DNA of 64,000 nt from an uncultured Spirochaetota bacterium (GTDB lineage Bacteria > Spirochaetota > Spirochaetia > SZUA-6 > Fen-1364), in assembly GCA_963734545.1 (NCBI GenBank), contig CAVTHO010000003.1, positions 320,001 through 384,000 on the forward strand, in the 5' to 3' direction. The notes beneath the pieces are model-generated. The model was not told where the DNA came from and did no database searches. It saw only the letters and a list, made by a program, of their open reading frames with translations. Within the stretch, counting starts at the first letter, position 1. Every line of letters begins with the position of its first letter. The position numbers and the translations under genes are program-made. This document shows, one piece after another, positions 11,354-62,277 of this stretch.

Positions 11354-11384
11354 GCGGCCCGTAGGCAGGGATGCCGAGGGACGC
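11354..11384 (+). repeat. GTAG/GGA-loop hairpin element, family 1, copy A
   Basis: GCGGCCC-GTA-GGC-AGGGAT-GCC-GA-GGGACGC; same architecture as the copies at 51624-51706 and 62221-62277. Confidence 0.65.
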
Positions 11385-11390
11385 TATAAT
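11385..11390 (+). promoter_or_regulatory. -10 box of the CBS-SpoIIE gene, near-leaderless
   Basis: Perfect TATAAT 9 nt before ATG 11400, with no Shine-Dalgarno in between. Confidence 0.55.
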
Positions 11391-11399
11391 CTGCCCCTC

Positions 11400-12596
11400 A
11401 TGCCGGATGCAGGTGGATACGGCCTCGACACGTCTCACCTGAACGCAACCGAGACATACCGCGATTTCCAGCTCGGCCATATCACTGAAAAGCTCACGCT
11501 CGTCGACTCTTCGCTCGCGCTTTCGGACGCCGTCATGTTCGTCGAAAAGGATCCCACGCTGCGCGGGCTCGCGGTGGAGGAGCTGGACAAGGTCATCGGC
11601 GTCGTGACCCGGGAGACCATCATGGAAAAGGCCGGCTCACGAATCGAGTTGTTCAAGGGCAAAGCCATCAAGGCCTATCTGCTGGACGACTCGATACGCT
11701 ACGACGCGCGGGACTATTGCGAGAAGGCGTTCTACGAAGTCATCAGGATCGAAGACAGGAAAATCGTCAATCTCATCATCTACGAGGGGACGCATTTCTT
11801 CGGCGTCATTCCGGTCAATCATCTGATCCGGCACGTCTCGCGGATACGCGAGCTGGCGTACGAGCAGGCCAGATACATCCAGCAGTTCTTCCTGCAGAAG
11901 AGCGACGAAAGGATCGAAGGCCTGGACTTTGCGCACCTCATCAGGATGGCCCACCAGATCGGCGGGGATTTCTTTCACATCAGGAAGATCTCGGCCACCC
12001 AGTCCCTCTTTGCCTGCTTCGACGTGGCCAACAAGGACATCGCTGCCTCTCTCACCACCGGGCTCCTGAGCTCGTTCTTCTCCATGTACTTCGATCTGCA
12101 GAGACAGGACTTCGAGCCGCAGGACCTGACGAGCGCATTGAACAGGATTCTCGTCGAGCAGACGCCGGCGGATATCTTCGTGGTGGGGGTGATACTGTTT
12201 TTCGATCGGGAGCGGAAAATCGTCAGGATATTCAATCACGGGTTCTCGCCGCTCTTTATATCGACGCCCCGGGAGAACAACCTTTCGAAGCTGGTGCGCC
12301 AGAACTCCAGCCTTCTGCCGCTTGGAATAAACGCGGATCTCGACATCCCGGCCGGAGTCCGGGAAGTGCCGATCGCGCCTCACACGAAGTTTTTCATCTA
12401 CTCGGACGGCCTGCTCGACGCGCTGGACATCCGCGGGAACCGTTTCGGAGAGAACCGGATCAAGGAGTTCGTCGTTTCGAACATGAAGCTGAGGCCGGCT
12501 GCATTCGTGAAAAACCTGCAGGAGGAATTCGACGCATTTGTCGGGGATGCGATACAGGCCGATGATTTCACCGCAATCATGATCGAGGTCGAGTAG
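11400..12596 (+). CDS. PP2C/SpoIIE (RsbU-like) phosphatase with an N-terminal CBS-like region
   Basis: IGGDF, DVANK (DVSGK-like), YSDGLLDA..GN.FG and DDFT..... The N-terminus has CBS-like patterns (LAVEELDKVIGVVTR; LIIYEGTHFFGVI). Confidence 0.85.
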   Translation: MPDAGGYGLDTSHLNATETYRDFQLGHITEKLTLVDSSLALSDAVMFVEKDPTLRGLAVEELDKVIGVVTRETIMEKAGSRIELFKGKAIKAYLLDDSIRYDARDYCEKAFYEVIRIEDRKIVNLIIYEGTHFFGVIPVNHLIRHVSRIRELAYEQARYIQQFFLQKSDERIEGLDFAHLIRMAHQIGGDFFHIRKISATQSLFACFDVANKDIAASLTTGLLSSFFSMYFDLQRQDFEPQDLTSALNRILVEQTPADIFVVGVILFFDRERKIVRIFNHGFSPLFISTPRENNLSKLVRQNSSLLPLGINADLDIPAGVREVPIAPHTKFFIYSDGLLDALDIRGNRFGENRIKEFVVSNMKLRPAAFVKNLQEEFDAFVGDAIQADDFTAIMIEVE

Positions 12597-12602
12597 CGCC
12601 TT

Positions 12603-12779
12603 TTATTCGTCGATTGCCATGGGATTGCAGAGGTTGTCGTCACACGCGGCGACCCTGCCGCAGTTGAAGCAGATGAAACGGGGCGCGCGGGCCATCTCCT
12701 GGATCTCCTTGAACTTTCCGCTGCCCGCCAGCACGCAGAGATGTCCCTCGTGCTCTCCTTTGCATGATGCCTGTTTCAT
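12603..12779 (-). CDS. 58 aa Cys/His-rich putative metal-binding protein, below the ORF-track cutoff
   Basis: Manual translation MKQASCKGEHEGHLCVLAGSGKFKEIQEMARAPRFICFNCGRVAACDDNLCNPMAIDE*. It fills the gap after dhaL in the same orientation. Confidence 0.75.
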   Translation of the reverse strand: MKQASCKGEHEGHLCVLAGSGKFKEIQEMARAPRFICFNCGRVAACDDNLCNPMAIDE

Positions 12780-12812
12780 GATGGCCCATTACACCCGCCC
12801 CTTGAGCAAAAG

Positions 12813-14470: not shown

Positions 14471-14476
14471 GGTGAC

Positions 14477-15361: not shown

Positions 15362-15383
15362 CGTATGTCCTTTCTCTTCGATC

Positions 15384-16223
15384 CTACCATGGGATCGGCT
15401 GTTTGCGTATTGCCGGCTGGCAGGAAGGGCAGTAGAACGAATCGTAGCCCAGCACTCCGGCACGCCGAATCGTGGTTCCACACCTGGGGCAGGGCTGGTC
15501 CTTCCTTCCGCGGACCCGCATATGGTCGCGGACCTTCACCTCGATGGGCATTCCCGCCTTTTCCACCTCGGCGATTCCCCACGCGATCACCGACCGGATG
15601 CTGTCATAGAGACCGCGGCGCTGCTCGGTGGAGAGGCTGCTGCATGAAGTTTTCGGGTGGATGCCTGCCGCGAACAGGATCTCATCCGCGTAGGCGTTTC
15701 CGATGGCGCTCAGCGCGGTCTGATCCATCAGGAACACCCTTGCCTGGTGCCGGCGCCCGGCGATCAGCCCTTCGAACTTTTCAAAGGTGAATGCATCCGA
15801 CAGAACATCCACGCCCTGTCCCTCGTAGCCGGGGATCGATTCATGACTTCCCGGGGCCGTGAGGTAGACCTTGCCCATGCGTTTGTCGTCGCCGTACCGA
15901 AGCCATTCCCCGTTGTCCAGGCGCAGGGAAAAGCACTGGTGGGGGACGGGCTTTTCCCCTGCCGCGGCTATCTGGAGCCTGCCGGCGAGCATGCAGTGCA
16001 CGATGAGCTCGGCGCGGCCGCTCAGCCCGAAGGCCAGAAACGGGCCATGCCGGGCCAGGCTCTCGATCCGCCTGCCCTGCAGCGCCGCGATGAAGCCGCC
16101 CGTGCCGGCCAGGAGCATGCGGATGACGATCGGCTCCTTCACGACGATCTCGTCGATACGCCGGTTCTCGATCCGGTGCCCGAGGTGTGTGACGATGTAG
16201 TGCAGGTCGGGAAGCTCCGGCAC
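15384..16223 (-). CDS. Fpg/Nei family DNA glycosylase/AP lyase
   Basis: N-terminal (M)PELPD from GTG 16223; H2TH motif LMDQ....IGNAYADEILF.AGIHP; C-terminal zinc finger CPRCG...YCPSCQ. Confidence 0.9.
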   Translation of the reverse strand: MPELPDLHYIVTHLGHRIENRRIDEIVVKEPIVIRMLLAGTGGFIAALQGRRIESLARHGPFLAFGLSGRAELIVHCMLAGRLQIAAAGEKPVPHQCFSLRLDNGEWLRYGDDKRMGKVYLTAPGSHESIPGYEGQGVDVLSDAFTFEKFEGLIAGRRHQARVFLMDQTALSAIGNAYADEILFAAGIHPKTSCSSLSTEQRRGLYDSIRSVIAWGIAEVEKAGMPIEVKVRDHMRVRGRKDQPCPRCGTTIRRAGVLGYDSFYCPSCQPAIRKQPIPW

Positions 16224-16325
16224 GTTCTCGAGTTGACCGCGCGGAACGCCTCTTGTCAACGACCGATCGGCCGCGTCAAGGAAATTTCCTGAGCCATGGC
16301 AGCAACCTGGATCTTATCTCGTTCA

Positions 16326-16356: not shown

Positions 16357-16372
16357 AGGCAGGAACGCTTTC

Positions 16373-16471
16373 CAGTACGGCGGGGTAGGGCGGGGTATGG
16401 CTGGGTACGGCGGGAACGGCTGGCTACGGCGGGGAACGGCTGGGTAGGGCGGGGTAGGCGGCGGGGTGCGG
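16373..16471. repeat. Degenerate G-rich 10-mer tandem repeat (~10 copies, consensus C[G/T]GGGTACGG)
   Basis: Units cggggtaggg|cggggtatgg|ctgggtacgg|cgggaacgg|ctggctacgg|cggggaacgg|ctgggtaggg|cggggtaggcgg|cggggtgcgg. Confidence 0.8.
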
Positions 16472-16506: not shown

Positions 16507-17811
16507 CTACATCCGGCGTTTGTCCACCACGCGCCGTGTCTTGCCCTCGATCTGCCGGGCAATGGTCCGGGGTTCCACCAGCGTGACCCGCGCCTTGACG
16601 CCGATGAGGGAGTCTATCTCCGCCGCGACGCGCACCTTCAGCTTTTCCAGGGATTTCATCTCATCCATTTCCGGCATGGATTCCGAGATCTCCACGCGCA
16701 CCTCGAGGGTATCGATGCCCGCCTCCCGGTCCACCACTATTTCATAGTGGGGCTGCAGGCCGCTCACGCTCAGGATGATCTGCTCGATCTGGGAAGGGAA
16801 AACCTTCGAGGCCCCCATGATGATCAGGTCGTCGATCCTTCCGCGCACGCGTGACATCCGCTTCAATGTTCTTCCGCACACGCACGTCTCGGTGGAGAGG
16901 ACGCCGAGGTCCCCGGTCCTGTAGCGGATCAGGGGAAAGCCCTCTTTCGTGATGGTGGTGAATACCAGCTCCCCTTCCGCTCCCGGGGGCACGGGCGTAA
17001 GGGTACGGCTGTCCACCGCCTCGACGATGAAATGGTCCTCGTTGACATGCAGCCCGGCCCGGGCCTCGCACTCGAAGGAAACCCCGGGGCCCAGGATTTC
17101 CGTGAGCCCGTAGTTGTCGAAGGTGGTGATACGGAGGGAGCTCTCGATCTGCTCACGCAGCCCTTCGCTCCAGGGCTCGGCGCCGAGAAAGCCCGCTTTC
17201 AGGGACAGCTTTTCCGGATCTATGCCCTTTTCCGCCAGCGCGGCGGCAATGGCGATTGCGTACCCGGGCGTGCACGCAAGCGCGGTGGGCTTGAAGTCCC
17301 TCATGATGAGGGCCTGCTTCTCCAGCGCTCCGGTAGAAGCGGGGATCACGGAGGCGCCGATCTTCTCCGCGCCGTAGTGGAACCCCAGGCCGCCGGTGAA
17401 CAGACCGTAGGTGAAGGCCACCTGGATCACGTCGTGCTCGGTCATGCCCCCCGCGGAAAGCACGCGCGCCACGCACTCGGCCCACATCCTTATGTCGTTT
17501 CTCGTATAGCCGACCACGACAGGGCTGCCCATGGTGCCGGAGGTGGACTGGATGCGCACGATGTCGCGCAGGGGGAACGCGAACATGCCGTACGGATAGC
17601 TTTGCCTCAGGTCTTCCTTCGTCGTGAAGGGGAGCCCGGCCAGGTCGGAGAGAGAGCGCACGTCATCCGCGCGGGCGCCCTTGCCCGACAACCCCTGCCG
17701 GTAGAAGGCCACATTGCGCACGGCGCGATTCAGCGTTGCCTGCAGCCTTTCCAGCTGCAGCTGCGCCATCGCCTCCGCGTCCAGCTTTTCGTACTTCTCG
17801 TTCCAGATCAT
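16507..17811 (-). CDS. paaK: Phenylacetate-CoA ligase family protein, paralog 1
   Basis: [57 protein letters not shown] and GR.DD.II. Confidence 0.9.
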   Translation of the reverse strand: MIWNEKYEKLDAEAMAQLQLERLQATLNRAVRNVAFYRQGLSGKGARADDVRSLSDLAGLPFTTKEDLRQSYPYGMFAFPLRDIVRIQSTSGTMGSPVVVGYTRNDIRMWAECVARVLSAGGMTEHDVIQVAFTYGLFTGGLGFHYGAEKIGASVIPASTGALEKQALIMRDFKPTALACTPGYAIAIAAALAEKGIDPEKLSLKAGFLGAEPWSEGLREQIESSLRITTFDNYGLTEILGPGVSFECEARAGLHVNEDHFIVEAVDSRTLTPVPPGAEGELVFTTITKEGFPLIRYRTGDLGVLSTETCVCGRTLKRMSRVRGRIDDLIIMGASKVFPSQIEQIILSVSGLQPHYEIVVDREAGIDTLEVRVEISESMPEMDEMKSLEKLKVRVAAEIDSLIGVKARVTLVEPRTIARQIEGKTRRVVDKRRM

Positions 17812-17826
17812 CTCACGTGCGTCCTT

Positions 17827-19324: not shown

Positions 19325-20284
19325 CGCGCGTTTCCCGCGCGGCCGCGCCGCGCGAACAGGCCGAACACTCCCTGCGGCGCGAACAGCATGATCCCCACGA
19401 GGATGGCGCCGAATACCGCGTCATCGTAGAGACCGAATGCCCCGCGCAGCGAGAGGAAGGTAAGCACCGTGGAAACGGCAAGGGTTCCCCAGAGGCTCCC
19501 CATGCCGCCGGCCGCCACGAGCGCCACGTAGCGCACGGACTTCATCACTCCTGCCTCACCGGGGCCTATGCCGCCGTTGAAGAACGCGAGGCAGGCCCCG
19601 CCCACCCCGGCGTACAGCGCGCTCAGGACGAACGTGGCAAGCTTGAATCGCGCCACGTCGACACCCATGGCCGCGGCGGCGTCCTCGTTGCCGTGTATGG
19701 CCCGGAGCGCCCGGCCCACGCGCGAGTGCACGAGGTTGATCGCCGTCAAGAGGCCGGCCAGGACCAGGCCCCACGCGATGTAGTAGTTCGGCACGCGCAG
19801 CGCCTTCCTGCCCGGTGATTGCCAGTCCGGCAAACAGGGGGAAGGCCGGGATGTCGGAGAGACCGTCCGCTCCGCCGAACAGGTTTGTGCCGAGCAGGAC
19901 GCGGAGCACAATGATGCCGAACGCCAGTGTCGCCATGGCGAGGTAGTGCCCCCGCAGGCGCAGGACGGGGATCCCGATCAGGAGCGCCACGAGACCCGTG
20001 ATGAGGATCGCGGCCGGCAGCGACACCCATGATGCGAAGCCCACGGTTGCCAGCACGGCCGCCCCGTACCCGCCGATTGCGAAGAAGCCCCCGTGCCCCA
20101 TGGAGACCTGGCCGGCATAGCCCATGAGCAGGCAAAGGCCCAGCGCCACCAGTGTGTAGTAGGCGGACATGGTGAGCTGGGTCATGTAGAACTCGAGCTT
20201 CAGCGCGGAAAGCCCCACCTGGACGAGGATGATGAGCAGGAGAAGGCAGAAGACAGGGAAGTAACGCCTGAGGTACGTACGCAC
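19321..20284 (-). CDS. livM: Liv-type ABC permease; +1 frameshift near 19811
   Basis: N-terminal half in ORF 19556..20284 (GYAGQVSMGH, RLRGHYLAMATLAFG); C-terminal half in ORF 19321..19911 (SRVGRALRAI...AAAMGVD). Confidence 0.88.
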
Positions 20285-20294
20285 GCGGCGCCTT

Positions 20295-21191
20295 TCAGCC
20301 GCCGGCCCGGACGGGCGCCGCCTGCCTGCGCGCGAAAAGGCCCTGCGGCTTGAGGACGAGGATCAGGAGCAGGATCCCCAGCGCCACCACATCCTTGTAC
20401 GCCAGCGGCAGGACACTCACGCTTGCCGTTTCCAGCACTCCCACCACCAGGCCGGCAGCCACGGCAGCAGGGACGCTCCCCGAGCCCTCCCAGCACGGCA
20501 CAGGTGAATCCTTTGACTGCAAGTGATGAGCCCATGTCGTACTGGGTTTGCGTGAGCGGGGAGACGGCGCAGCCGGCCAGGGCGCCCATCGCGGCCGCCA
20601 GGAAGAAGGAAAGCGTGACCACGGTGGAGGCGCGGATGCCGCAGAGACGGGCCGCCGTGGGATTGGACGCGCAGGCGCGCATGGCCTTGCCCAGCAGCGT
20701 GGACCGGAAGAACAGGGTGAGGCCGACCACCATGAGCCCGGAGATCAGCAGCACCCAGAGAAGCTGGGGCGAGATGCGGGCGCCCAGCACGGCCAGGGAG
20801 GAGGTCTCATCACCGGAGAAGAACGGCAGGGCGTGCACTTTTTCATCCCAGATGTGCAGCCCCGCCTCCCGCAGGAGGATGGACAAGACCGATCGTGATG
20901 ATGATCATCCGCAGCACGGCGGGGTTCTTCAGCCAGGAGAGGAACACGATCTGCAGAAGGACCCCCGCGGCGCCGGTGGCGAGCACGGCCACGGCAATTG
21001 CCGCGGGGAGCGGCAGCACGGGGGCCAGAGAAATGGCGATCATGCCCGCCGAGCATCAGGAACTCGCCCTGGGCGAAGTTGATGATGCCCGTCGCGTTGT
21101 AGACGACGGTGAACCCGATGGCAACGACGGCGTACACGCTCCCGGTCGCGATCCCGGCCAGCAGGTACTGGAGGAGCTGTGTCGCCTGCAT
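20295..21191 (-). CDS. livH: Liv-type ABC permease; three +1 frameshifts (~21045, ~20885, ~20480)
   Basis: Pieces GSVYA..AIGF...YNATGIINFAQGEF / MIAISL.. / GKAMRACASN..AA.LCGI / KPQGLF spread over four ORFs in successive frames. Confidence 0.85.
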
Positions 21192-21203
21192 GCTCCCGCG
21201 CGC

Positions 21204-22353
21204 CTACTTCTTGTACAGCGCGAACTCGCCGTTCTTCACGGTGAGCATCTCGAACGCGTCCATCGTGAGCCCGTTGTGGTCCGTCGGAGAGAAGCTGAAG
21301 ATCCCCCCCGTGCCGGCGATGCCCTTCAGGCCTTCAATGGCATCCCGGACTTTGCCATGGTCAACGCTCCCCGCGCGCTTCACCGCCTCAGTCAGCACGA
21401 GAAAGGCGTCGTACGCGTGCCCGCCGAAGGTGCTGACGTCTTCCTTGAACCTCGCCTCGTATTCCTTCTTGTAGGAGGTGAGAACCTGCTTCTGCGGATG
21501 CCCCGCGGGGAGCACGTCCGCGACCAGGAGCCTGCCGGCAGGGAAGATGATGCCGTCCGCGGCCTTTCCCGCCATGGTCACGTAGTTGATGTTTCCGAAC
21601 CCGTGACTCTGGAACAGGGGAATCTCGAAACCCATCTGCTTCATGTTCTTGGGCACCAGTGACTGAGCCGGCTCGACGGACCAGTTGACCACGGCCTGCA
21701 CGTTCTGCAGCCTTGATCTTGGTGAGAACGCCGGTGAGGTCGGTTGCGGTGGACTCGTACACCTCGGTGATTGCCAGGTCGATGCCATTGGCCGGCGCCA
21801 GCTTTTCAAGCTGCGCCTTGCCGCCCTGGCCGAAGCCTGAGTTGCTCACCACGGCCCCGATCCGGGTAATGCCCAGCTTCTTCATGGTGGTGAAGATCAT
21901 CTGAGCGGCAAAGCTGTCCATCTGCGGGGTCTTGAAAACCCATTTGGCCACGGGATTGACGATTGTCTCCGCAGCGGCGCAGGAGATGAGGATCGTCTCA
22001 TTCTCGTCGCAGTAGCTCTTGATCTTCATGCTCTCACCGGTGGTGGAGGGCCCGATGATCGCCAGGACCTCCTGCTCCTCGACGAGCTGCTTGGCGAAGG
22101 AGAGGGCCTTTTCGGCGTTGCCCTGCGAGTCCTTCATGAAAAGCTCGATCTTCCTGCCGCCGATCCCTCCCGCCGCGTTGGCGTCATCGACGAGCATCTG
22201 CATGGTCCTGGATTCAGGCAGGCCGAGGTTGGCGGCAGGGCCGGTAATAGCGAAGATGGCGCCGATTCTGATGGCCCCTGTATCAGCCGCAAAGCTGGAA
22301 GCGGTCAGAAGCGCCGCAAGACCCAGACAGAGGACGAGTTTCTTACTGGACAT
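21204..22353 (-). CDS. Liv-type ABC substrate-binding protein, possibly aromatic-acid binding; +1 frameshift near 21710
   Basis: Signal peptide; IRIGAI...TGPAA.LG, NAAGGIGGRKIEL and IIGPSTTG. C-terminal part QSHG...FGGHAYDA...GTGG.F.FSPTDH.G lies in ORF 21204..21809. Confidence 0.88.
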
Positions 22354-29900: not shown

Positions 29901-29963
29901 GTACCACCAGGATGATGTGAAATACTCTATCACAGAGCGGCGCAGGAACGGAAGGGCCGTCGA

Positions 29964-30009
29964 CCCGCGCCCCGGTTGCGCTCCTGCGCCCGGGTTGCGC
30001 TCCCGCGCC
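29964..30009. repeat. 19-bp tandem direct repeat (2.4 copies) in the divergent TolC/MFP intergenic region
   Basis: cccgcgccccggttgcgct|cctgcgcccgggttgcgct|cccgcgcc. Confidence 0.7.
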
Positions 30010-30069
30010 TTTTCCGCTACTATCGATTCGCCAGCATTAAAACGATCAGACATAAAAAGGGCAATCCGG

Positions 30070-43600: not shown

Positions 43601-46600
43601 TTCAATTTCCATGCGCTGGGTGTCCTGATCATCAGCGGGAGCGGCGTGGCAGGTGACTTCGATGTCAGCATGTCGGTGGGATCGAGTCTCTCCTCTGTCA
43701 TGACCGCCGCAAACGTCTCCGCGCGGGTCATATTCAATACGACGGGAGCCGACCAGAGCGTGACCATTCCGGCGGCATTCCTGCCGCTGCTGAGCCAGCA
43801 GACAAAGAATCGCCTCGTGGACAATGGCTCCGGCCTCAAGATGTACGTGGTTTCCGGCGGTGCACCGCTCGTGGACGGAACCACGGCCAGCCCCGGCACC
43901 TATATTGTCGCCCGTTTCGATGCCACCCTCACCCTCGGCGGCTTCTGGTCGCTCGCGGGGCACTTCCGGCTGGCTGCCGGCCCGGGCTTCTTCGAGCTGT
44001 CTGCCAGCGCCTCCCTGAACCTCGGCTTCCTCGGGAGCCTCAATGCCACGGGGTTCGTGCAGATAACGAGCGCGGGAATCGCGGGAAGGTTCTCAGTCAG
44101 CGGCACCATGCAGACAACCGGATTCAGTCTTACCGCCGCCGCTTTCTTCGAGGTCAACACCACCGGCTCTGCCGTGAACACCGGCACCGCCGTCATCCAG
44201 CCCGGGTACCGGGTTTCCTTCACCGGCACGGCAAGCTTCCTCAATTTCTGCCAGGCCACGGCCACGGGATACGTGAGCATAGATGGCACCGGCCTGCAGC
44301 TCTACTTCGACGGGACCTTCACGATCGGGCCTCTCTCCTTCGGTGCATCGGCGTATGTCGGGGTCTTCTCTACAGGCATCGTTCTGGATGCCCATGTCTT
44401 CTTCAAGACGAACATCCTGTCCCTCTTCGATTTCGACTTCGACGGCAGGGTGCAGATCAACACGACAGGCGCGGACCTCGCCGGATTCAACGGTCCGAGC
44501 GGGTGGGTGAGCTTTGTGGACGCGAATGGAAATCCCGTCACCATCCCCCACAACTCCTTCTATCTGGACGTGCAGGCAAAACTGAACGTGCTCTCGGTCA
44601 TTCAGCTCAGCGGCAGGCTCATCGTTTCCGTGGAAAATGGCGGCTGGTCCATCACGATTCCCGCAAGCAACAAGCTGAGCGCGAGCCTGTTCGGCATGAT
44701 GACCATCTACGGCTACGGCTTCCTCAACTCCCAGGGTCATTTCGATCTGCATTTCGGCGGCGGAGTCGGTCTTCCCTACTACGGGGCCAGCACCGGCATC
44801 CAGGGAGATATCTTCTTCGACGCCTCGTTCCTCGGCACCACGTTCCACTTTGGCGCGGGCGGCAGCTTCAGCGCAAAATGCGCGGACGTGAACCTGATCG
44901 GAGTATCGGTGAGCCTGTCCGCCGATGGGACCCTCGGCCAGTCCATGAGCCTCGATCTGACCGTGAGCGGGACCGGGACTGTTCTGGAGACCGTCATAAA
45001 GATCGTGCGGATGACCCTGGAGGCGGCGCAGGACATCGGCGCCGCCATCGTCAACTTCCTGGGCTCGCTCGGATGCGAGATCCTGAGCTGGTTCGGCGCC
45101 TGCGACCAGTGGGTGGACGTCGAGATGCCCAGCACGGAGTGGGTCACCAAGCTCTTCAGCTTCACCATCCACCTGGCAACCATCCAGCTCCCCAGCAGCC
45201 TCGCCAACAGCGCGCCCCCGCCGCCGAACCTGGCGGACCTTTCCGGCGGTGTCCTGACCTTGAATGTCGGCTCCCGGGCAGCTTTGCGGGGCGTCCAGCC
45301 GGGGAATCTGGATGAAAACTTCTCCATCTCCCACGTGTCAGGGACTGCCGGGAATGAAACGCTGATCGTCACCGCCTTCGGGGTCTCGGAGACTTACACC
45401 GGTGTTTCTTCGATCTCCGCGGACTTCGGAAACGGTAATGACATATTCGTGGCTGCTCCCGGGGTCCTGGTGAGCGCCACGATCTACGGCGGAGCCGGCA
45501 ACGACACCCTCGTTTATTCCGGATCCGGGTCCGGCGCGCTTTACGGCGGGTCGGGGGATGACGTGCTCACCCTCGGCAGCGGTGTCGCGGCCGGCTCCGC
45601 CTACGGCGGGGACGGGAACGACCAGCTCACGGCAGAGATCACCGGCCCGGTCGGGGTGTCCCTGTATGGCGAGGCGGGCAACGATACTCTGGCCGGAGGC
45701 GCGGGAAGCGACATTCTCAGCGGCGGAGACGGGAACGACATCCTTCAGGGTCGGGGCGGAGCGGATGCCATCACGGGCGGCGCAGGAAACGACACGCTCA
45801 CCGAGTACCTGGCCACCCTGGGAATGGGAGCGTCATTTGACGGCGGCTCGGGCATGGACCAGATCAAGCTGCTGGGAAGCTCGGGGGCCAATACCTTCAA
45901 GGCCGCGGCCGAAGGGACCACCCAGGTCCGGCTGAGCTCCTGTTCCGGCAGCACGGAGACGGCATACCTCCTCGGGTCGACCGTTGAAAGCCTGATCATG
46001 AACGGCGAGGGCGGCGCCGATCGGTTCGTATTTGTCGGGAACCTCCGGCAGGCGGGGGTCACGACCGTGACGGCAGACCTGAATGGGGACCCGTCCACGG
46101 ACACGGTAGAGATCTCTCTGAGCGATCAGGACGATGCCCTGAGGCTTTCGGACTACTCGGCGACACCGAACAGCCTGAGCGCGAGCTGGTCCGGCCACAG
46201 CGTGTACAACCTGCTCTCGGTGAACTCGGCGGGCGGGGACACCCTGACCGTGAAGGGCGGAGCAGGCAGCGATCTTCTCTGCGGCGCCACGGTCGCCACT
46301 TCGCCGTTCAGCCAGATTGCTTTCTACGGCGAAGCGGGGGACGACATCCTCTGCGGCACCGTGCAGAACGATCTTCTCGACGGCGGGCTCGGCAACGACA
46401 GGATCACCGGCATGGCCGGGACGGACATCTTCCAGGATGCCGGCGGCTACAACACGCTGGTAGAGGTATTCGACGCCGACCTTGGCCTCTTCGGCAATCT
46501 CTTCATCGTGGGGACCGCGCAGCTTTCCGGCAGCGGAGAGAGCCGCGTCCTGGCCGGCTTCACCGGCGCCACGGTGGAAGACATTGCCGGCGTATTCTCC

Positions 46601-49600
46601 GAGGTCCAGCTCGTTGCGGGACAGAGCCGGAACATCTTTGCCATAGGCGCCGCGGCAGGGATTGTGAACGCGAATGGCTCGGCAAGGACCGCCACCCCGT
46701 GGAACGGATTGGCCAGGCTCAATGGCGTCGGCGGAGACGATGAGTACCTGGTGGAGCTTTCCGGCCTGAGTGGGGCCACGGTGCAGGTCGTCGAATACTC
46801 GCTGATCCAGAACGGCGTGGTGGTGCAGGCGGCAGGCGGCAACGATGTCCTGACTTTCAAGGGCACCGGCGTCTCCGATACGGGAAGCGTTTCGGTGAGC
46901 GGAGGCCAGACCACCTTCTCCCTGCAGCCTGACGGCCTGGCCGTGAGCCACGTGGTCAGCACTCCGGACATCGAATCGAATCTGTTGTATCTCCGGGCCG
47001 GTGACGACGTGCTCGCCGTGAACAGCATCAACGTGGCGACTCTCGTGGCTGCCGGTGACGGCAACGACAGGATCGACGTACGGTCAATCCCCGTTGCCTT
47101 GGCGGTAAATACGGGAGCGGGGGATGACACGGTCAACGTGGGAAGCGCTGCCCCCGGGGTCGGCGGGACAGTGGACGGGATCGTCGGACAGCTCGTGGTG
47201 GAGGCCGACGGCGGCGACAATGACGTGCTGAACGTGGACGATACGGGAGACCTGACGGACAACACTGGGTACCTGACCTCCACGGACCTGACAGGGCTGG
47301 GGATGGGCGCGGGCATCCACTACGCGGGCTTCGAGTACCTGAACATCGGGCTGGGCGCGGGAAATGACACTCTGAACGTGCAGACCATCGGCGCGTACAC
47401 CACGGTGAGCGCGGGAGCGGGGGATGACACGGTCAACGTGGGAAGCGTTGCCCCCGCGAGTCGGCGGGACAGTGGACGGGATCGTCGGACAGCTCGTGGT
47501 GGAGGCCGACGGCGGCGACAATGACGTGCTGAACGTGGACGATACGGGAGACCTGACGGACAACACTGGGTACCTGACCTCCACGGACCTGACAGGGCTG
47601 GGGATGGGCGCGGGCATCCATTACGCGGGCTTCGAGTACCTGAACATCGGGCTGGGCGCGGGAAATGACACGCTGAACGTGCAGACCATCGGCGCGTACA
47701 CCACGGTGAGCGCGGGAGCGGGGGATGACACGGTCAACGTGGGAAGCGTTGCCCCCGGGGTCGGCGGGACAGTGGACGGGATCGTCGGACAGCTCGTGGT
47801 GGAGGCCGACGGCGGCGACAATGACGTGCTGAACGTGGACGATACGGGAGACCTGACGGACAACACTGGGTACCTGACCTCCACGGACCTGACAGGGCTG
47901 GGGATGGGCGCGGGCATCCATTACGCGGGCTTCGAGTACCTGAACATCGGGCTGGGCGCGGGAAATGACACCTTCACGATAGCGGACACGCATGGCGGAG
48001 AGACCACCCTGCACACGAACGCCGGCAATGACACGGTAAACGTGCTCGCGACCGGCGGGCTGACCAACGTATATGCGGACGCCGGGGATGACGTGGTGAA
48101 TGTGTCCTCCGATGCCCCCGCGGACAGCGGCACCCTGGACAACATCCTTGGCCTGCTCAACATAGATTGCGGCACGGGCATCAATACCCTGAACGTGAGC
48201 GACGAGGCGGACGGGACCGGCGATTCGGTGATCATCACCAGCAACTCGATCGTTGGTTTCTCGCCTGCTCCCATCACTTACACGGCCTCGGGAGGGACCT
48301 TCGGTGGAGGAATCAACATCGAAGGCGGCTTCGGCGGGAACTCCATCGAGATACAGTCCACGAATGACAGCCCAGGCACCACGACGACCCTCTGGTCGGG
48401 TGACGGCAGTGACTACGTTCTCGTGACTGAAACAGATCCCCTGTCGCTGGTCATCCACGGCGAGGCCGGCAATGACGTGATCTTCGCGGCAGTGGTGATG
48501 ACCGACCTTGTCATCACGGGAGACGGGGGAGACGACTTCATTACCAGCGGCTCGGGGAATGACTGGATCACCGGCAACGACGGTGACGATGTGATCCTCG
48601 CCGCCCTCGGAAATGACACGGTGTCGGGCGGCGCGGGCAACGATATCATCACCGGCGACCAGGGCATCGCAACCTGGGCCGAAGGGAAGGTCGTGCGGAT
48701 CGAGACGTCCAACCCCGGGATGGGCGGTGATGATCTTATTGCGGGAGACCTTGGCGACGACATTACCCTGGCCGGGTGCGGCGCCGACACGGTTGACGCT
48801 GGGGACGGCGAAAACGTCGTGCTCGGCGACAACGGTCTTGTACTCATCGAAGCCGGAACCGCCGTCAGGATCGAGAGCACGGACCCCGCGTACGGCGGTC
48901 AGGATTTCATTCATGCCGGCAGCGGGAATGACATCCTCTTCGGCGGGACTGCAAATGACACGATCTTCGCCGGGGCCGGAGACGATATCGCGCTGGGAGA
49001 CAGCGGACTGTTCACTCGCTCCCCGCAGGCTGCTTCGGTTCTGACTTTCAGCGCCTATGCCGGCGGGAACGTCCTGTGCACCAATACCGGCGCGAACGAT
49101 GGCGGCGGCAATGACGAGATCCACGGCGGTCCGGGCGACGACCTCATCATGGGTGAGCAGGGAGACGACCGGCTCTTTGGTGACCAGGGAGACGACGACA
49201 TCATTGGCGGCCACAATGTCCGGTTCGGGGCGGATGGCAGCGACTTCATAGACGGCGGTGACGGCGCGGATGTCGCGCTGGGAGACAATGGCACGATATC
49301 CAGACGCCCCGTGAGCGGCCAGGCATGGGTCTGGCAGAGATATCCGGCACCGTTTGCCGATGTCATACGGGACGTCGTGCTCTTTGACGATGCGGATGGT
49401 GTTGCCGGGCAATGACGAGATGCTCGGCGGGACGGGAAACGACACTCTCCATGGCCAGCGCGGCAGCGACGTTCTGAAGGGCGGCGCGGGTGACGATGAG
49501 CTGGTGGGCGGACTCGGAGATGACAGCCTTGCCGGAGACGATGGAAGCGACATCCTGGCGGGAGATACCGGAATCATTTTCCGGGCCTGGAACCCGGACG

Positions 49601-51510
49601 GCTCTCCCAGAGTGGATCCCAACGGCTCGTGGCACAAGGATGTGCTGCTGACCGATGTCGGGATCATCACCGGCGTGTATTACCTGGACAACATATCCTT
49701 CAAGGATCTGAGCCCGGCCGTGCTCGGGGACCTCCTGAATGCCGATCTGGTGCTCCTGATGGGCGCCTATAATCCTGATGGCACGCCTTACCTCGTGAAG
49801 GACGGCTGCCGCAAGGAATGGCAGACATGCCTGCTGCTCGTGAAGCTGCTGCCTGACGGAAATGACACGCTGGACGGCGGCGCGGGAGACGATTCACTGC
49901 TTGGCGGGAGAGGCGATGACGCCCTGGCGGGCGGGGACGGCAACGACCTCCTGGCCGGGGACGCAGGAAATGATCTTCTTGACGGAGGCGCCGGAGATGA
50001 CGTCCTGGTCGGCGACGAAGCGACGAGGATGACTTCAGGTGACGCGCTTCCGGACGTGCTCCATGGCCTGCACCTCATCACTGGAGGAGCGGGATACGCT
50101 GCCCCGGCGAATATCGTCATGACGGATTTGGGGGCAACGATAATCCCGGTCGTATCGGTGATTCCCGGCCGCGCAACGAGCATCCTGAGCGGCGCGTGGG
50201 GCTATCTCGGGAACGCGAACCGCCTGGTCAGGACCGACGGCACGTGGCTCCTGCCCTTTGCTTCGATCGTCACGGACGTGGCTCATCACATGGGCCTGGT
50301 TGCCGGAAACGACCTTCTCATCGGCGGTGACGGAGACGACGTGCTGGTGGGTGACACGCTGCTCGTCTTCGAGCCGACGGTAATCGTGACCGACCCTCTC
50401 CTTGATTCCGCCGGCCTCCTGCTGCGGGACCTCTCATACGCAACTGGGAAGCTGAACGAGTTCGTGTGCAGGCTCGATCATGCCATCGACGAGGCCACCG
50501 AGCATCGCTGCGTGAGCCACGTGGACGTGATCGTCGACCAGACATACCGGATCGGCTGTGACGAGCTGGACGGCGGGCCGGGGAATGACCTCCTGGCCGG
50601 GGACGACATGGCGGTGCTCTCGCCGTCGTTCACCGTGCCGCTCGGTCTGGTGAGGGATCTTGAACGCCTCCTCGACCAGGCGGAAGGGCTCGGACAGGGG
50701 TTTGACCGGGCGCTCAGCCAGATCGACGATGCGGCGCTCGATCTGCGCGAGGTGCTCGTGTCGGTGAAGTGCGGCAAGAAGACCGTGCTGAACCTCGAGA
50801 GGCACGTGGACCAGATTTTCGCAGGCAATGACTCCATCACGGGCGGCGAGGGAGACGACGTGATCGTCGGTGACCGCTGGACCGTCATGGCGCCCCGGCT
50901 CACGGTGGTTGCAGGCCCGGCGTTCTGCCACCATCACGACCACGGCTGTGACGGATGGGACAGTGATGGCGGGGCGTGCGGCAATGCCCTGGCGGACGGC
51001 TGGATCACGGGCAACGACACGCTGGACGGCGGCGCAGGAAACGATGTTGTATTCGGGGATACCGCGGCGTTCGCCGCCCCTGTGCTGGCCGTCGATCCCG
51101 GCGTCAGCAAGTGCGGCTTCAGGTCCGTGCGGGACGCCGCCGAGGATACTCTGGGGGACCTGATCGAAATGGGGCTGGGCCTCAGCAGCCAGGGAACCTG
51201 GTTCCATCTCGGTGACTGTGACGGCGGATTGTACCTGAGCCGCAGCAACGGGGCGTCGTGCGGCCATTCCTGTGACAAAGGCAAGACAGACAGCGATATC
51301 ATCCAGGGCGGAGACGGGGATGACCTGCTGTTCGGCCAGGGCGGGGATGACACTCTCCTGGGAGGCGCGGGAAACGACTGGCTCATCGGCGGTGACGGTC
51401 ATGACCACCTCGATGGCGGTCCGGGCTGCGACAAGATCAGCCACGGGTGGGACTGCTGCAGGGACTTGAGGAGCAGGGTCTTTGCCCGGCTCTCTCCGTG
51501 GACCATCTGA
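37615..51510 (+). CDS. Giant (~4630 aa) LEPR-xLL-motif surface protein with beta-rich repeats and RTX calcium-binding repeats; three +1 frameshifts (~42944, ~47458, ~49408)
   Basis: Four ORFs (37615..43059, 42881..47524, 47424..49415, 49354..51510), each one frame on from the last and continuous in repeat register. N-terminal FQLEPLESRLLLSA; many GGxGxDxL nonapeptides from ~45430 onward. Confidence 0.88.
47112..47971 (+). repeat. Near-perfect 300-bp (100 aa) tandem repeat, ~2.9 copies, inside the giant gene
   Basis: Units start at 47112, 47412 and 47713 (cgggagcgggggatgacacggtcaacgtgggaagcg...). Copy 2 carries the extra base. Confidence 0.95.
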
Positions 51511-51517: not shown

Positions 51518-51545
51518 AAGGGGCGCCTTTCGAGGCGCCCTTTTG
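51518..51545. terminator. Bidirectional intrinsic terminator between the giant gene and asnS
   Basis: AAGGGGCGCC-TTTCGA-GGCGCCCTTTT, with an A-tract before and a T-tract after; lies between convergent genes. Confidence 0.85.
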
Positions 51546-51588: not shown

Positions 51589-51623
51589 GTCCGCCCCACG
51601 CGACCAGAGCGGTACTCCGCACT
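51589..51623 (-). repeat. 35-bp hairpin element, family 2; direct repeat of 53103-53137
   Basis: AGTGCGGAGTACCGCTCTGGTCGCGTGGGGCGGAC matches AGTGCGGAGTACCGCTCTGGCCGCCGGGCGCGGAC at 31 of 35 positions. Confidence 0.8.
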
Positions 51624-51706
51624 CGGCGCCCCTCGCCGTCCCTGGGCCCTACGGGGCGCCTTCCGTACATCCTGTACTCGGCGCCCCTCGCCGTCCCTGG
51701 CTACGG
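51624..51706 (-). repeat. Cluster of three GGA-loop hairpins, family 1, starting at the asnS stop codon
   Basis: CC-GTA-GCC-AGGGAC-GGC-GA-GGGGCGCC-GA-GTAC-AGGAT-GTAC-GGAA-GGCGCCCC-GTA-GGGCCC-AGGGAC-GGC-GA-GGGGCGCC. Confidence 0.8.
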
Positions 51707-53050
51707 ATATATTCTCGAGATGGTCCTCGGGAATGGGATGCACTCCCTGATGTGCGGGCTGCCGCAAATCCATGCGAGTGTGCGCTCGAGACCGATGCCA
51801 TAGCCCGAGTGGGGGACCGAGCCGTATTTGCGCAGGTCGAGGTACCAGCCGTAGGTGTCCTCCGGCAGCTTCTCCTCGTGGATGCGGGCGAGCAGCTTCT
51901 CCAGGGAGTCTTCACGCTGGGATCCGCCAATGATCTCCCCGTAGCCTTCCGGGGCAAGAAGGTCGGAGCACAGGACAGTCTCGGTGTTGGCGGGGTTCTC
52001 TTTCATATAGAAGGCCTTGGCCTTTTTCGGATAGTTCATGACGAAGATGGGCTTCTCGTGCAGCTTCGTCAGGATAGTCTCGTCCTCTCCGCCCAGGTCG
52101 TCCCCCCACTGGATTGCGCTGCCCTTGGACTGGAGTGTCTTCACCGCCTCGGCGTAGTCCATTCGGATGAAGGGCGTAGTCACCTTCTTGAGCGGCTCAC
52201 TGTCCCGCTCCAGCGCCTTGAGCTCTTCGGGGCAGTTGGCAAGAACGTCCGAGACCACCCTGCTCACCATGTCTTCCTGCAGTCGCATGTTGTCTTCATT
52301 GTCCGCGTAGGCCACCTCGGCCTCGAGCATCCAGAACTCGGTGAGGTGCCTGCGGGTCTTGGACTTCTCCGCGCGAAAGGTCGGTCCGAAATTGTAGACC
52401 TTGCCGTACGCCATGCAGGCCGCCTCGAGGTAGAGCTGGCCGGTCTGGGCGAGGTACGCATCCCCCAGGTCGAAGTAGGGCACGGTAAAGAGTGTCCCCG
52501 CGCTTTCTCCGATGGAGCCCGTGAGAATGGGAGTGTCGATGAGCAGAAAGCCTCTCTCGTGGAAGAAGGCGCGAAAGGAGGTGATGGCCTGGTCCCGAAT
52601 GCGCATGATGGCGTAGGGCCGGCTGGAGCGCAGCCAGAGGTGCCTGTTCTCCAGAAGGAAGTCGATGCCGTGTTCCTTCTTCGAGATGGGATAGTCGTCT
52701 GCCGGGTTCTGCACGACATCCAGGCCGGTCACGGTGAGCTCGAAGCCGGAAGGAGCGCGCTCGTCCCTGCGCACCTTGCCGCGCACCTTGACGGAGGCTT
52801 CCATTTTCAGGCCAGCGATTGCCGCGAAGCATTCGGCACCGCAGCCGGTCTCCTCCGCCACGCCCTGTATCCTGCCGCTGCCGTCACGGAGCTGCAGGAA
52901 GGCGATCTTTCCCTTGGACCGGAGATTGTACAGCCAGCCGTTGATCTGGACGTCGCTATCGACGTGTTTTCCGATCTCGGATATCGAAACCAGCTCGCCA
53001 CGGTACTCCGTGGATTCTGCTGCGCCACGGTACTCCGTGGATTTATCCAT
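51701..53050 (-). CDS. asnS: Asparagine--tRNA ligase
   Basis: OB-fold GW....RSKGKIAF.QLRDGSG..Q; YPI..KEHG..FL...RHLWLR; YLAQTGQLYLE; GPTFRAEKSKTRRHLTEFWM.E; GEIIGGSQRE; WYLDLRKYG.VPH.G.G.GLER. Confidence 0.96.
   Translation of the reverse strand: MDKSTEYRGAAESTEYRGELVSISEIGKHVDSDVQINGWLYNLRSKGKIAFLQLRDGSGRIQGVAEETGCGAECFAAIAGLKMEASVKVRGKVRRDERAPSGFELTVTGLDVVQNPADDYPISKKEHGIDFLLENRHLWLRSSRPYAIMRIRDQAITSFRAFFHERGFLLIDTPILTGSIGESAGTLFTVPYFDLGDAYLAQTGQLYLEAACMAYGKVYNFGPTFRAEKSKTRRHLTEFWMLEAEVAYADNEDNMRLQEDMVSRVVSDVLANCPEELKALERDSEPLKKVTTPFIRMDYAEAVKTLQSKGSAIQWGDDLGGEDETILTKLHEKPIFVMNYPKKAKAFYMKENPANTETVLCSDLLAPEGYGEIIGGSQREDSLEKLLARIHEEKLPEDTYGWYLDLRKYGSVPHSGYGIGLERTLAWICGSPHIRECIPFPRTISRIYP
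52996..53043 (-). repeat. Two identical 21-bp palindromic units (family 2) translated within the AsnS N-terminus
   Basis: CGCCACGG-TACT-CCGTGGATT at 52996 and 53023 (27-bp period), encoding STEYRG twice. Confidence 0.9.
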
Positions 53051-53102: not shown

Positions 53103-53137
53103 GTCCGCGCCCGGCGGCCAGAGCGGTACTCCGCACT
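53103..53137 (-). repeat. 35-bp hairpin element, family 2, immediately after the fliG stop
   Basis: Core GCGG-AGTA-CCGC; direct repeat of 51589-51623. Confidence 0.8.
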
Positions 53138-53140
53138 TCG

Positions 53141-57711: not shown

Positions 57712-57773
57712 GAATCTAAGAAAACATCTTTGCCCTTCGTTGTCCACTGCTGGTACCTTTGACGGGGGTGACT

Positions 57774-58484: not shown

Positions 58485-58500
58485 GCGAACCTCTTTTGTA

Positions 58501-58529
58501 TTGACACCTCGGGAGGGCGATTCTACACT
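58501..58529 (+). promoter_or_regulatory. Sigma70-type promoter of the cheY-cheX-kinase operon
   Basis: TTGACA-N17-TACACT, followed by GGAGG and ATG 58551. Confidence 0.78.
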
Positions 58530-58550
58530 TCGGGGCGCCGGAGGTCTCAT

Positions 58551-61620: not shown

Positions 61621-61631
61621 GGGAAGCGGGG

Positions 61632-62171
61632 TCACTTCCCCCCGGCGGGAAGCGGCGCGTCCAGCGGCCAGAGGATCACGTAGTCGTTGTCCTTCACCCC
61701 GGCATGACATTCGTAGCAGTACGCGACCCTGCCTTCGAGGGCGAGGTTATTGCTGACCACGATCTTCCCCTTGGGATCGTACATCGCCCAGAACCAGTCG
61801 CCGTCGTCGGGATTGTAGCCGCGCACTTTCGCCATCACGGTGACATTGATGAGCTTCTTGTCCGCGCTGAAGTTCTCTTTGACGATAATCGACCCGTCGG
61901 GAGCGGTCTTCGAGGCAATGGGCAGCGCGGAGGCGAGGGTCGCGTTGATGTACACCTCGTGATATTTCCCGTGCGGAGACTGCCCGGGGAGGAGCCCCTC
62001 CTGCCCGGGCCAGTGCGCGTATATATCGTAGTCGCTGTCCACCGTGATGCGCTTCCACAGCCGCTCGCCGGATATTTCAGCTCCGGTGAGCGGAGCAAGG
62101 ATCGGCTCTTTCTCCTTTGTGCAGCCGAAAATCAACGCGGCAAGACAGCCCAGAAGGAGCACGCAGCGCAT
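61632..62171 (-). CDS. Cytochrome P460-family lipoprotein
   Basis: Lipobox IFGC; PDGSIIVKEN, VMAK..GY.P..GDWFWA.Y and C-terminal CYECH...KD.DY. Start taken at MRCVLL after GGAGG. Confidence 0.85.
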   Translation of the reverse strand: MRCVLLLGCLAALIFGCTKEKEPILAPLTGAEISGERLWKRITVDSDYDIYAHWPGQEGLLPGQSPHGKYHEVYINATLASALPIASKTAPDGSIIVKENFSADKKLINVTVMAKVRGYNPDDGDWFWAMYDPKGKIVVSNNLALEGRVAYCYECHAGVKDNDYVILWPLDAPLPAGGK

Positions 62172-62220
62172 GGGCCCACCTCCCTGCGCCATGATACGCC
62201 GGGGCAGGGTGAAGCGCAAT

Positions 62221-62277
62221 GAGCCGCCTGTCGTGCATCCCTGCACTCGGCGGCCTCGACATCCCTGTCTACGGCCG
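62221..62277 (-). repeat. Two GGA-loop hairpins, family 1, directly after the PLC-like stop codon
   Basis: CGGCC-GTA-GAC-AGGGAT-GTC-GA-GGCCGCC-GA-GTGC-AGGGAT-GCAC-GACA-GGCGGCTC. Confidence 0.8.

Follow-up and report, generated by a model that had tools for sequence, protein, structure and literature searches.

Results

Three loci of a GTAG-headed repeat

The 64-kb stretch of DNA analysed here (the window; 64% G+C) comes from an uncultured Spirochaetota bacterium and carries spirochaete-type genes, among them fliG, a cheA-like gene, cheX and genes for RTX proteins with type I secretion parts. Its intergenic regions hold four units of a short palindromic repeat at three loci, copy A, locus B (units B1 and B2) and unit C, which are the subject of this report (Table 1). 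A first-pass annotation had read them as a dispersed repeat, akin to repetitive extragenic palindromic (REP) elements, that places CsrA-binding hairpins in 3' untranslated regions (UTRs). The three loci are present as it described them, and the strings it quoted lie in hairpin 1 of C (ACAGGGATGT) and hairpin 2 of B1 (GTACAGGATGT). The REP-like character and the sense position behind stop codons stand; a CsrA sponge or stability switch has gained no positive evidence. At gathering threshold, Rfam matches nothing in the window except a tRNA (63455-63527).

Locus B follows asnS (51701-53050, minus strand), which is identified by its tRNA-synt_2 and anticodon OB Pfam domains. The TAG of the GTAG that heads B1 is the asnS stop codon itself, as had been noticed, and the codon before it, CCG, encodes the native C-terminal proline. 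B2 comprises only the first half of a unit; its supposed second GGA hairpin turned out to be a different palindromic module (type 3 below), which takes the place of hairpin 2 and recurs behind the stop of fliG. If the hairpin and T-run downstream terminate asnS, the locus B repeats form its 3' UTR. Unit C also lies in the sense orientation behind a stop codon, the TAG of an open reading frame (ORF; 62278-63312) resembling Zn-dependent phospholipase C; the TAG of its GTAG follows two codons on in the same frame. Copy A stands between divergent genes for an ABC ATPase (10507-11316, minus strand) and a SpoIIE/PP2C phosphatase (11400-12596, plus strand). A promoter-like site overlaps it, with the -35 box TAGGCA (11362-11367), a 17-nt spacer and a perfect -10 box TATAAT (11385-11390) 9 nt before the ATG at 11400, and copy A is therefore probably not transcribed, the start apparently lying downstream of it, a doubt that the first-pass annotation had already raised.

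Table 1. Coordinates of the repeat units, modules and associated features in the window and in the related loci (L numbers)
Feature	Position	Strand	Remarks
Copy A, truncated unit lacking hairpin 2	11353-11384	+	Covariance model 30.2 bits, E 1.5e-6
Copy A, GC-rich arm	11353-11360	+	
Copy A, GTAG	11361-11364	+	
Copy A, hairpin 1	11364-11375	+	AGGGAT loop; then CGA and a degenerate second arm
Promoter-like site over copy A	11362-11390	+	10/12 consensus positions; shuffles average 0.1 sites
Locus B (B1, half of B2, type 3 module)	51704-51600	-	
Unit B1, complete	51653-51704	-	Covariance model 76 bits
B1, GTAG	51704-51701	-	
asnS TAG stop, the TAG of B1 GTAG	51701-51703	-	Preceding codon CCG, native C-terminal proline
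B1, hairpin 1	51701-51690	-	Then CGA
B1, first arm GGGGCGCC	51687-51680	-	Then GAG
B1, hairpin 2	51676-51666	-	Then CGGAA
B1, second arm GGCGCCCC	51660-51653	-	
Unit B2, first half only	51623-51652	-	nhmmer E 9e-4
B2, GTAG	51652-51649	-	Then longer hairpin 1 (CAGGGAC loop), CGA, arm GGGGCGCC
Type 3 module in place of B2 hairpin 2	51600-51622	-	GCGG/CCGC stem, AGTA loop
Intrinsic terminator-like hairpin and T-run	51521-51540	-	Downstream of locus B
fliG TAG stop	53143-53141	-	
Type 3 module immediately 3' of fliG stop	53114-53140	-	fliG/asnS interval
Unit C, no terminal TAG	62223-62278	-	Covariance model 70.2 bits
C, preceding arm	62278-62273	-	
C, GTAG	62272-62269	-	
C, hairpin 1	62269-62258	-	Then CGA
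C, arm GGCCGCC	62255-62249	-	Then GAG
C, hairpin 2	62245-62234	-	Then CGACA
C, arm GGCGGC	62228-62223	-	
TAG stop of Zn-phospholipase-C-like ORF	62278-62280	-	TAG of GTAG two codons on, in frame
In-frame near-stop TAG, window C	62269-62280	-	
In-frame near-stop TAG, L008	8519-8528		
In-frame near-stop TAG, L021	~10031-10040		
In-frame near-stop TAG, L054	~9998-10006		
Second module, L048	10046-10079		
Second module, L048	10139-10172		
Second module, L011	3786-3819		
Second module, L013	951-984		
Second module, L029	10042-10073		
Second module, L024	~10057-10095		
Second module, L003	2850-2892		

A complete unit measures about 53 nt and consists of GTAG, hairpin 1, CGAGG, a GC-rich arm, GAG, hairpin 2, CGRRA, the complementary arm and a closing NTAG. 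The two hairpins lie on the same strand and are alike, each following an xxAG tetranucleotide (GTAG, then CGAG) and preceding CGA; their loops are constant (A-N-GGA-Y) and their stems vary. The arms separating them are 7-8-mers whose orientation alternates, and an arm may also precede GTAG. In the 29 units aligned for the analyses below, GTAG stands ahead of hairpin 1 in 26, a feature that the search pattern required, as it does in all four window units. GGA is kept in 28 of 29 hairpin 1 loops, which the pattern constrained, and equally in 28 of 29 hairpin 2 loops, which it left free and in which the base before GGA varies (G in 17, T in 5, C in 4, A in 1). Each unit thus presents two GGA loops, about 26 nt apart. 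The 3' end reads G/C/A-TAG in 19 of the 29, and arrays consequently run TAG-unit-TAG-unit-TAG.

A family apparently confined to high-GC Spirochaetia

The 17-nt pattern by which the first-pass annotation had linked the three loci is not significant taken alone (3 matches against 1.10 expected at no more than one mismatch; 11 of 100 shuffles reach at least 3), and the reality of the family follows instead from a covariance model and from further copies. We ran a stricter pattern (CCGTAG, hairpin 1, CGAGG, arm, GAG) in one scan over 185,579 species-representative genomes. It returned 57 loci. Of these, 24 belong to 12 metagenome-assembled genomes (MAGs) of 60-66% G+C that carry the label Spirochaetia, Spirochaetota or Spirochaetaceae, and in every one of the 24 loci hairpin 2 and the second arm follow, although the pattern demanded neither. 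The other 33 loci come from a range of other phyla, fall mostly in coding DNA and lose their likeness to the unit where the pattern ends. The window's own genome is absent from the fetched loci; window and 24 loci together amount to 433,395 bases, in which an nhmmer profile found 42 units in 29 arrays. The same profile gave 11 first-round and 10 second-round hits in the 33 control loci, all 11 first-round ones at the pattern site. The covariance model (R1), built from 29 full units, scored 44-85 bits in the 24 Spirochaetia loci as against at most 33 bits at the chance loci; in the window it gave 76 bits for B1, 70 for C and 30 for A, the next best score being 15.

Three loci lie in the window, and a MAG has at most four strict-pattern loci. 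As far as the scan could see, the family is confined to a clade of uncultured, high-GC (60-66%) Spirochaetia. Relatives of the window's AsnRS at 71-95% identity belong to Spirochaetia MAGs wherever a source is named, and one ORF upstream of an array matches the Borrelia P83/100 family. Between the window and the fetched loci, blastn gave no match at E < 1e-20, and in tblastn with nine window proteins the genes flanking the elements had no orthologue there.

Covariation of a conserved palindrome

The predicted structure, comprising hairpin 1, hairpin 2 and an arm helix that encloses hairpin 2, was tested on the 29-unit alignment against 500 shuffles. Paired cells make up 85.5%, compared with 69.4 +/- 1.3% in the shuffles, and double-change cells number 74, compared with 28.0; none of the 500 shuffles reached either value. 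The compensatory changes first read from three copies are thus confirmed. The 74 cells count sequences and not events, and since the variation falls into a few subfamilies common to several MAGs, the number of independent compensatory events lies far below that figure. Sliding the 3' partners by 1-3 columns lowered pairing to 25-36%. The variable pair of hairpin 1 occurs as CG (11), GC (6), AU (5), GU (1) and UA (1), with 5 other combinations; each of the two variable pairs of hairpin 2 takes three Watson-Crick types; and the arm helix shows double changes at six of its eight pairs, one common subfamily having two tandem G-A/A-G oppositions within it.

Mutually exclusive folds, another property ascribed to the multi-hairpin loci, are real at the level of sequence, a consequence of the alternating orientation of the GC-rich arms. 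At minimum energy, the arm helix encloses hairpin 1 in C and hairpin 2 in B. An alternative helix of the upstream arm with the first complement, around hairpin 1, is paired in only 50.7% of cells; coding sequence, not an arm, precedes most first units. G.U pairs are rare (5 cells, as against 16 for A.C), and top and bottom strands fold with similar energies and z-scores. What the covariation attests is therefore a conserved palindrome and not an RNA.

Anchoring at TAG stop codons

Where do the arrays begin? We scored the upstream context of each of the 29 and compared the upstream ORFs with Pfam. In 17 arrays a co-oriented upstream ORF terminates with the TAG of the first GTAG, so that the hairpin begins 0-1 nt after the stop, and in four more that TAG lies one to three codons in frame past the stop. 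One array (L012) starts 13 nt past a TGA stop, out of frame; three occupy spacers of divergent genes (window A, L043 and L021b); three are antisense to both neighbouring genes (L004, L011 and L048); and one is cut by the locus end. A Pfam family in the frame that ends at the GTAG was found for 15 of the 17 stop-anchored ORFs: TsaD in three MAGs, carbon-nitrogen hydrolase (CN_hydrolase) in two, and GH57 amylase, malic enzyme, P83/100, Usp, cupin-HTH, ATP-synt_ab, FecR, PNP_UDP_1, Bmp and, in the window, AsnRS.

The control loci make the same point. With an ORF accepted if it has at least 100 open codons in frame and a third-position G+C content (GC3) that reaches 0.7 and exceeds that of the other two frames, 14 of the 24 family loci qualify as against 3 of the 33 other pattern loci (Fisher p = 9e-5), which bears out the suspected orientation bias relative to stop codons. 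Two other approaches were abandoned: counting CCGTAG sites as probable stops, which antisense ORFs in GC-rich DNA confounded, and gene calling by codon usage, which chose the wrong strand for asnS and fliG and was replaced by Pfam-verified ORFs. As a separate observation, five arrays begin near a stop that is not part of their first GTAG, and in four of them the TAG of that GTAG is in frame, one to three codons past the real stop (p = 0.045); the ORFs concerned are Pfam-verified for window C and L008, and not for L021a and L054.

The window and the 24 loci use TAG unusually often, with 89 TAG, 135 TGA and 21 TAA stops among 245 confident ORFs, the TAG share being inflated by the selection of loci. 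In the window, a unit follows two of the 15 TAG-ending ORFs, and the type 3 module follows a third, fliG.

The gene ends themselves appear unaltered. The AsnRS C-terminus R-[I/L]-Y-P recurs in 120 of 120 relatives among the matches listed (71-95% identity), and TsaD ends in Y-P in 115 of 120 among those listed for it (79-95% identity); both the final proline and the stop site are therefore native, and the unit starts exactly 3' of them. In L024 the Usp domain ends one residue short of the stop codon. Starts that the search pattern did not dictate are GCG-TAG in L013, at an ATP-synt_ab stop; CCA-TAG in L021b at 11468; CCA-TAG in L042b at 13024, where it is the stop of a DegT aminotransferase and is followed by a remnant of hairpin 1; and CTTAG in L011. 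Their common element is TAG, with a leaning to a preceding CC. Recoding of TAG or programmed readthrough was considered and rejected, since a unit of about 53 nt changes the reading frame and orthologous genes carry different arrays.

Composition and age of the arrays

Some arrays are homogeneous (L007, L029, L037, L048, L004 and window B), and others combine subfamilies that differ in their arms and hairpin 2 stems (L019, L036 and L011). Two further modules accompany the unit. The second module starts with GGCGGCAG, contains a hairpin, often with a GAA loop, and ends with GGCGAGAGCC or GGGAGCCCATAG; L048 (twice), L011, L013 and L029 have it within the 3' half of hairpin 2, and in L024 it follows a GTAG and closes with CCCATAG. 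The type 3 module, in which a GCGG/CCGC or CACGG/CCGTG stem encloses AGTA, is also found next to arrays in L011 and L019. Its copies at the fliG stop and in locus B, 1.5 kb apart, share a string of 22-23 nt (stem, AGTA loop, then CTCTGGYCGC). The mosaic arrays resemble composites of the bacterial interspersed mosaic element (BIME) type, and serial insertion at a recreated target explains them more easily than slippage alone.

Units stand at the same stop of orthologous genes in different MAGs, behind tsaD in L003, L016 and L040 and behind the CN hydrolase gene in L007 and L015. Yet fourfold degenerate sites of these orthologues are saturated (identity 0.33-0.41). The tsaD units of L016 and L040 differ at about 4 of 60 positions, and L003 carries another subfamily with extra modules.

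Discussion

A probable REP-like repeat behind amber stops

We consider it moderately probable that the family is a DNA-level, REP-like repeat, selfish or domesticated, targeted behind CC(G/A)TAG, and propose the following model. A HUH/Y1-type enzyme that recognises hairpins, either a REP-associated tyrosine transposase (RAYT) or one like those of IS200/IS605 elements, would copy units, now or formerly, in single-stranded form and place them immediately 3' of a CC(G/A)TAG site. The amber stop of a proline-ending gene would be a harmless site, so that copies inserted there survive. With its own 3' end the unit would recreate the target, on which further units and other module types could stack into mixed arrays. 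Conserved loops and flanks over covarying stems would then reflect recognition of a folded strand and the spread of a few subfamilies, and not RNA function. The enzyme, the single-stranded route and the exact target are what we infer; the family, its covariation, the anchoring at stop codons, the native Pro-TAG gene ends, the mosaic and nested arrays and the antisense copies are observed. Signs of a DNA-level element are the arrays antisense to their neighbours, the near-equal folding of the two strands, the rarity of G.U pairs and a promoter-like site over copy A.

The available portions of the literature on REP systems fit this model in several respects. REPs are described as palindromes of 20-50 nt behind GTAG, which acts as a guide 5' of the hairpin, and group 3 systems do not accept changes at some bases of the loop (PMC8266576). 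Because the transposase of these group 3 systems needs the loop bases on single-stranded DNA, conserved loops and covarying stems are expected without any RNA function. REPs also gather near ORF 3' ends, at distances below 20 bp (PMC3733652). Like the GTAG-type REPs and BIMEs that are associated with RAYTs (E. coli REP, Pseudomonas REPs, Stenotrophomonas SMAG), the spirochaete repeats are short, extragenic palindromes directly behind a conserved tetranucleotide, mostly GTAG; they appear dispersed, frequently clustered in tandem and positioned just past gene 3' ends, and they share several subfamilies per genome and conserved loop bases over variable stems. They differ in that their hairpins are tiny (3-5 bp), with a core shorter than the typical REP that attains a palindrome of 20-50 nt only if the arm helix is counted; in that the unit is a head-to-tail pair of hairpins and not a REP with its inverted partner (iREP); in that units close with TAG and the stop codon itself usually supplies the first TAG; and in the host phylum.

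A second likeness is to IS200/IS605 elements and their transposase-less derivatives, which resemble palindrome-associated transposable elements (PATE-like) and also have similar subterminal hairpins at both ends on the same strand. A guide tetranucleotide stands on the 5' side of each hairpin (PMC8266576). In the spirochaete family the target would be CC(G/A)TAG, remade by the right end, and the unit is only about 53 nt long. Insertion of IS200/IS605 elements takes place 3' of a short specific target and without duplication.

Several observations weigh against the proposed model. No gene for a Y1 transposase or RAYT was found among the 59 window ORFs or the 135 ORFs within 2.5 kb of arrays, and TnpA and TnpB were likewise missing from these two sets; tblastn with E. 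coli RayT over the 433 kb gave a best E of 0.2, and a motif regular expression was also negative, although this sample is less than about 1% of the 12 genomes and the miss is only moderately informative. Neither the window nor the fetched loci contain an empty site or a presence/absence polymorphism, so that duplication-free insertion 3' of TAG is deduced rather than seen. The pattern demanded CCGTAG, which makes the CC in the 24 loci partly a selection bias; only four stop-anchored copies are free of the pattern, namely asnS, L013, L042b and, less securely for its position in a divergent spacer, L021b. Density in the flanks is low, with just two further independent arrays across about 370 kb. 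The arrays are not classical BIMEs or REP doublets (REPINs) either, since these consist of two inverted REPs and a linker, while here hairpins and units are all head-to-tail and only the 7-8-nt arms alternate. Finally, the persistence of units at orthologous stops fits in-place selection, and hence a host function, as well as it fits repeated insertion, homogenisation or gene conversion.

Possible roles in the transcript

Does the position behind a stop codon point to an activity in the message? Most arrays are probably co-transcribed as 3' UTR, and the arrays may in addition affect mRNA 3'-end stability or termination, by analogy with what is reported for E. coli REPs near stops. The DNA-level model, a role at the 3' end and CsrA binding are not mutually exclusive. 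We regard it as rather unlikely, if still the most credible of the alternatives, that the element is in essence a cis-acting RNA module for translation termination or 3'-end protection, with a hairpin 0-1 nt past Pro-UAG that either stalls or slows the terminating ribosome or blocks 3'-5' exonucleases and so protects messages whose Pro-stop ends terminate slowly. A C-terminal proline makes for poor termination and for tmRNA tagging. Proline is the last codon in asnS and tsaD and in the pattern-free L042b and L021b, units are retained at orthologous gene ends, and 17 of the 29 arrays have the hairpin directly at the stop; yet the proline bias is largely a product of the search pattern. REPs no more than 15 nt from a stop stall ribosomes and lower output, according to Liang et al. 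2015 as cited in the available text of PMC12306157. The spirochaete units share with these stop-proximal E. coli REPs (Liang, Rudd and Deutscher 2015) a predicted stable stem-loop right behind the stop; they differ in that the stop codon belongs to the conserved head of the repeat. Antisense arrays, copies in divergent spacers, nested modules and TAG unit ends are left unexplained by such a module. A terminator-like hairpin with T-run occurs within 220 nt downstream of only 6 of the 29 arrays, so that many of the 3' UTRs are putative; the units themselves have no T-runs, and we rejected the idea that the arrays are intrinsic terminators.

We hold it to be decidedly unlikely that the family serves as CsrA-binding RNA, in which the two A-N-GGA-Y loops of each unit would bind CsrA dimers and the arrays act as sponges or stability switches in 3' UTRs. 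The loop motif fits the CsrA core, and this part of the original interpretation is otherwise unsupported. Several GGA motifs do lie in hairpin loops, two to each unit; GGA is retained in the unconstrained hairpin 2 loop while its neighbour varies, and a common hairpin 2 variant matches 11 of 12 positions of the consensus from systematic evolution of ligands by exponential enrichment (SELEX) quoted in the first-pass annotation. In addition, most arrays lie in sense 3' of a gene, window B at least precedes a terminator, and orthologous copies outlast synonymous saturation. The sense bias, however, is already explained by stop-codon anchoring without a role for CsrA. Three arrays run antisense to the genes on either side, copy A probably precedes a transcription start, and the sense strand shows no excess of G.U; discrete subfamilies common to species at non-orthologous sites suggest spreading elements rather than evolution in place.

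The search for the protein partner, which the first-pass annotation had suggested along with that for RAYT, was also negative: neither csrA nor fliW was found in the window, within 2.5 kb of arrays or, when E. coli CsrA served as tblastn query, anywhere in the sampled 433 kb. A csrA-like match in L011 (E 0.64) was discarded as falling in a LolA-like lipoprotein gene. CsrA and FliW are subjects of research in Leptospira, Borrelia and Treponema, to judge from the portions of that literature at hand, and by analogy the presence of csrA in this clade is plausible. With the sponge RNAs CsrB, RsmY and RsmZ the family has in common several hairpins with GGA in A-N-GGA-type loops. It differs from them as a dispersed repeat behind coding genes, with no dedicated small RNA gene, with some copies antisense or probably untranscribed and with CsrA binding only putative; Rfam searches of locus B and L007 at E up to 10 gave chance matches of snoRNA type and no CsrB/Rsm family. 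A literature search by titles and abstract openings found no work linking CsrA with REPs as binding sites, and the search brought up nothing on GTAG palindromes joined to a TAG stop codon.

A further RNA resemblance lies beneath hairpin 1, where a 3x2 GUA/GA internal loop closed by C-G recalls the sarcin-ricin/loop E bulged-G motif, and the top of hairpin 1 is an A-U-closed GGGA tetraloop in 19 of the 29 units. This is a resemblance of letters, in which GTAG and CGAGG were fixed by the search pattern.

One may also combine these ideas, in what we regard as a long shot. A Pro-UAG-anchored RNA, with a sarcin-ricin-like GUA/GA loop and two A-N-GGA hairpins directly at the amber stop, could sense translation, the terminating ribosome melting hairpin 1 and flipping the arm helices. 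Translation of the upstream genes would thereby control whether CsrA, or a different protein that recognises GGA loops, binds to dozens of 3' UTRs, and the family would amount to a distributed CsrA sponge, responsive to translation, that was spread as a REP and then selected. If this were true, the orthologous copies that persist beyond synonymous saturation would be the trace of that selection. Least credible of all is a miniature inverted-repeat transposable element (MITE) with terminal inverted repeats, mobilised by a DDE transposon and duplicating TAG or CTAG at insertion: TAG does stand on both borders of the unit, and a DDE_Tnp_1_4 transposase gene (8284-9744, plus strand, E 1e-145) lies about 250 nt from the L012 array, but the ends of complete units have no terminal inverted repeats as judged by eye, both hairpins share one orientation, and the gene adjoins only 1 of the 29 arrays, one that is not anchored at a TAG stop.

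What would follow if the anchoring holds genome-wide? The family would be REP-like with a conserved GTAG head that doubles as the amber stop of the host gene. It would provide a natural case both for REP site choice, with a defined CC(G/A)TAG target behind proline-ending genes, and for the effects of a hairpin at +1 on termination and mRNA decay. The family further brings Spirochaetia into the range of GTAG-type repeats; the 2013 survey, in the part available, lists Spirochaetes with only CGTC-type and no GTAG-type repeats (PMC3733652). More generally, the family calls for caution, since a DNA-level repeat without RNA function can yield both covariation and a CsrA-like loop motif.

Other features of the window

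The coding 5' end of asnS appears to have taken up a palindromic module of type 3. The gene starts at an ATG at 53050 with GGAG 6 nt upstream, and its 5' end (53001-53036, minus strand) has two copies of an 18-nt string that contains the palindrome CCACGG-AGTA-CCGTGG; together the copies encode a doubled S-T-E-Y-R-G. AsnRS relatives are mostly 432 aa long and start with M-E-L-V; of the closest, at 92-95% identity, one (P0001, 440 aa) has a single copy, and the other (P0002, 458 aa) has a longer, diverged extension in which S-T-E-Y recurs.

Four successive large ORFs of 1814, 1547, 663 and 718 aa occupy 37615-51510 (plus strand), the last three with RTX nonapeptide repeats, and 300-nt tandem repeats lie within this region at 47151-48051. 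Genes for an outer-membrane efflux protein and an HlyD-type protein are found upstream (28320-30894); the whole is probably a cluster of type I secretion substrates.

At 19559-21809 (minus strand), partial matches to a branched-chain amino-acid permease (profile positions 5-122 of 269) and a periplasmic binding protein (189-329 of 343) lie beside ABC ATPase genes that are intact. The operon has a second copy, itself intact, at 6646-11316, and the partial one may be a paralogous transporter operon in decay.

A G-rich 10-nt unit of the TACGGCGGGG kind is repeated in tandem about nine times at 16376-16466, flanked by an fpg-like gene (15387-16259, minus strand) and a gene for an AMP-binding enzyme (16510-17811, minus strand). 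Finally, the region 32769-36907 (plus strand) encodes a SecA-like ORF of 661 aa, shorter than usual, with SecA_DEAD, preprotein cross-linking and P-loop domains, which is preceded by an overlapping ORF of 718 aa that matches no Pfam family.

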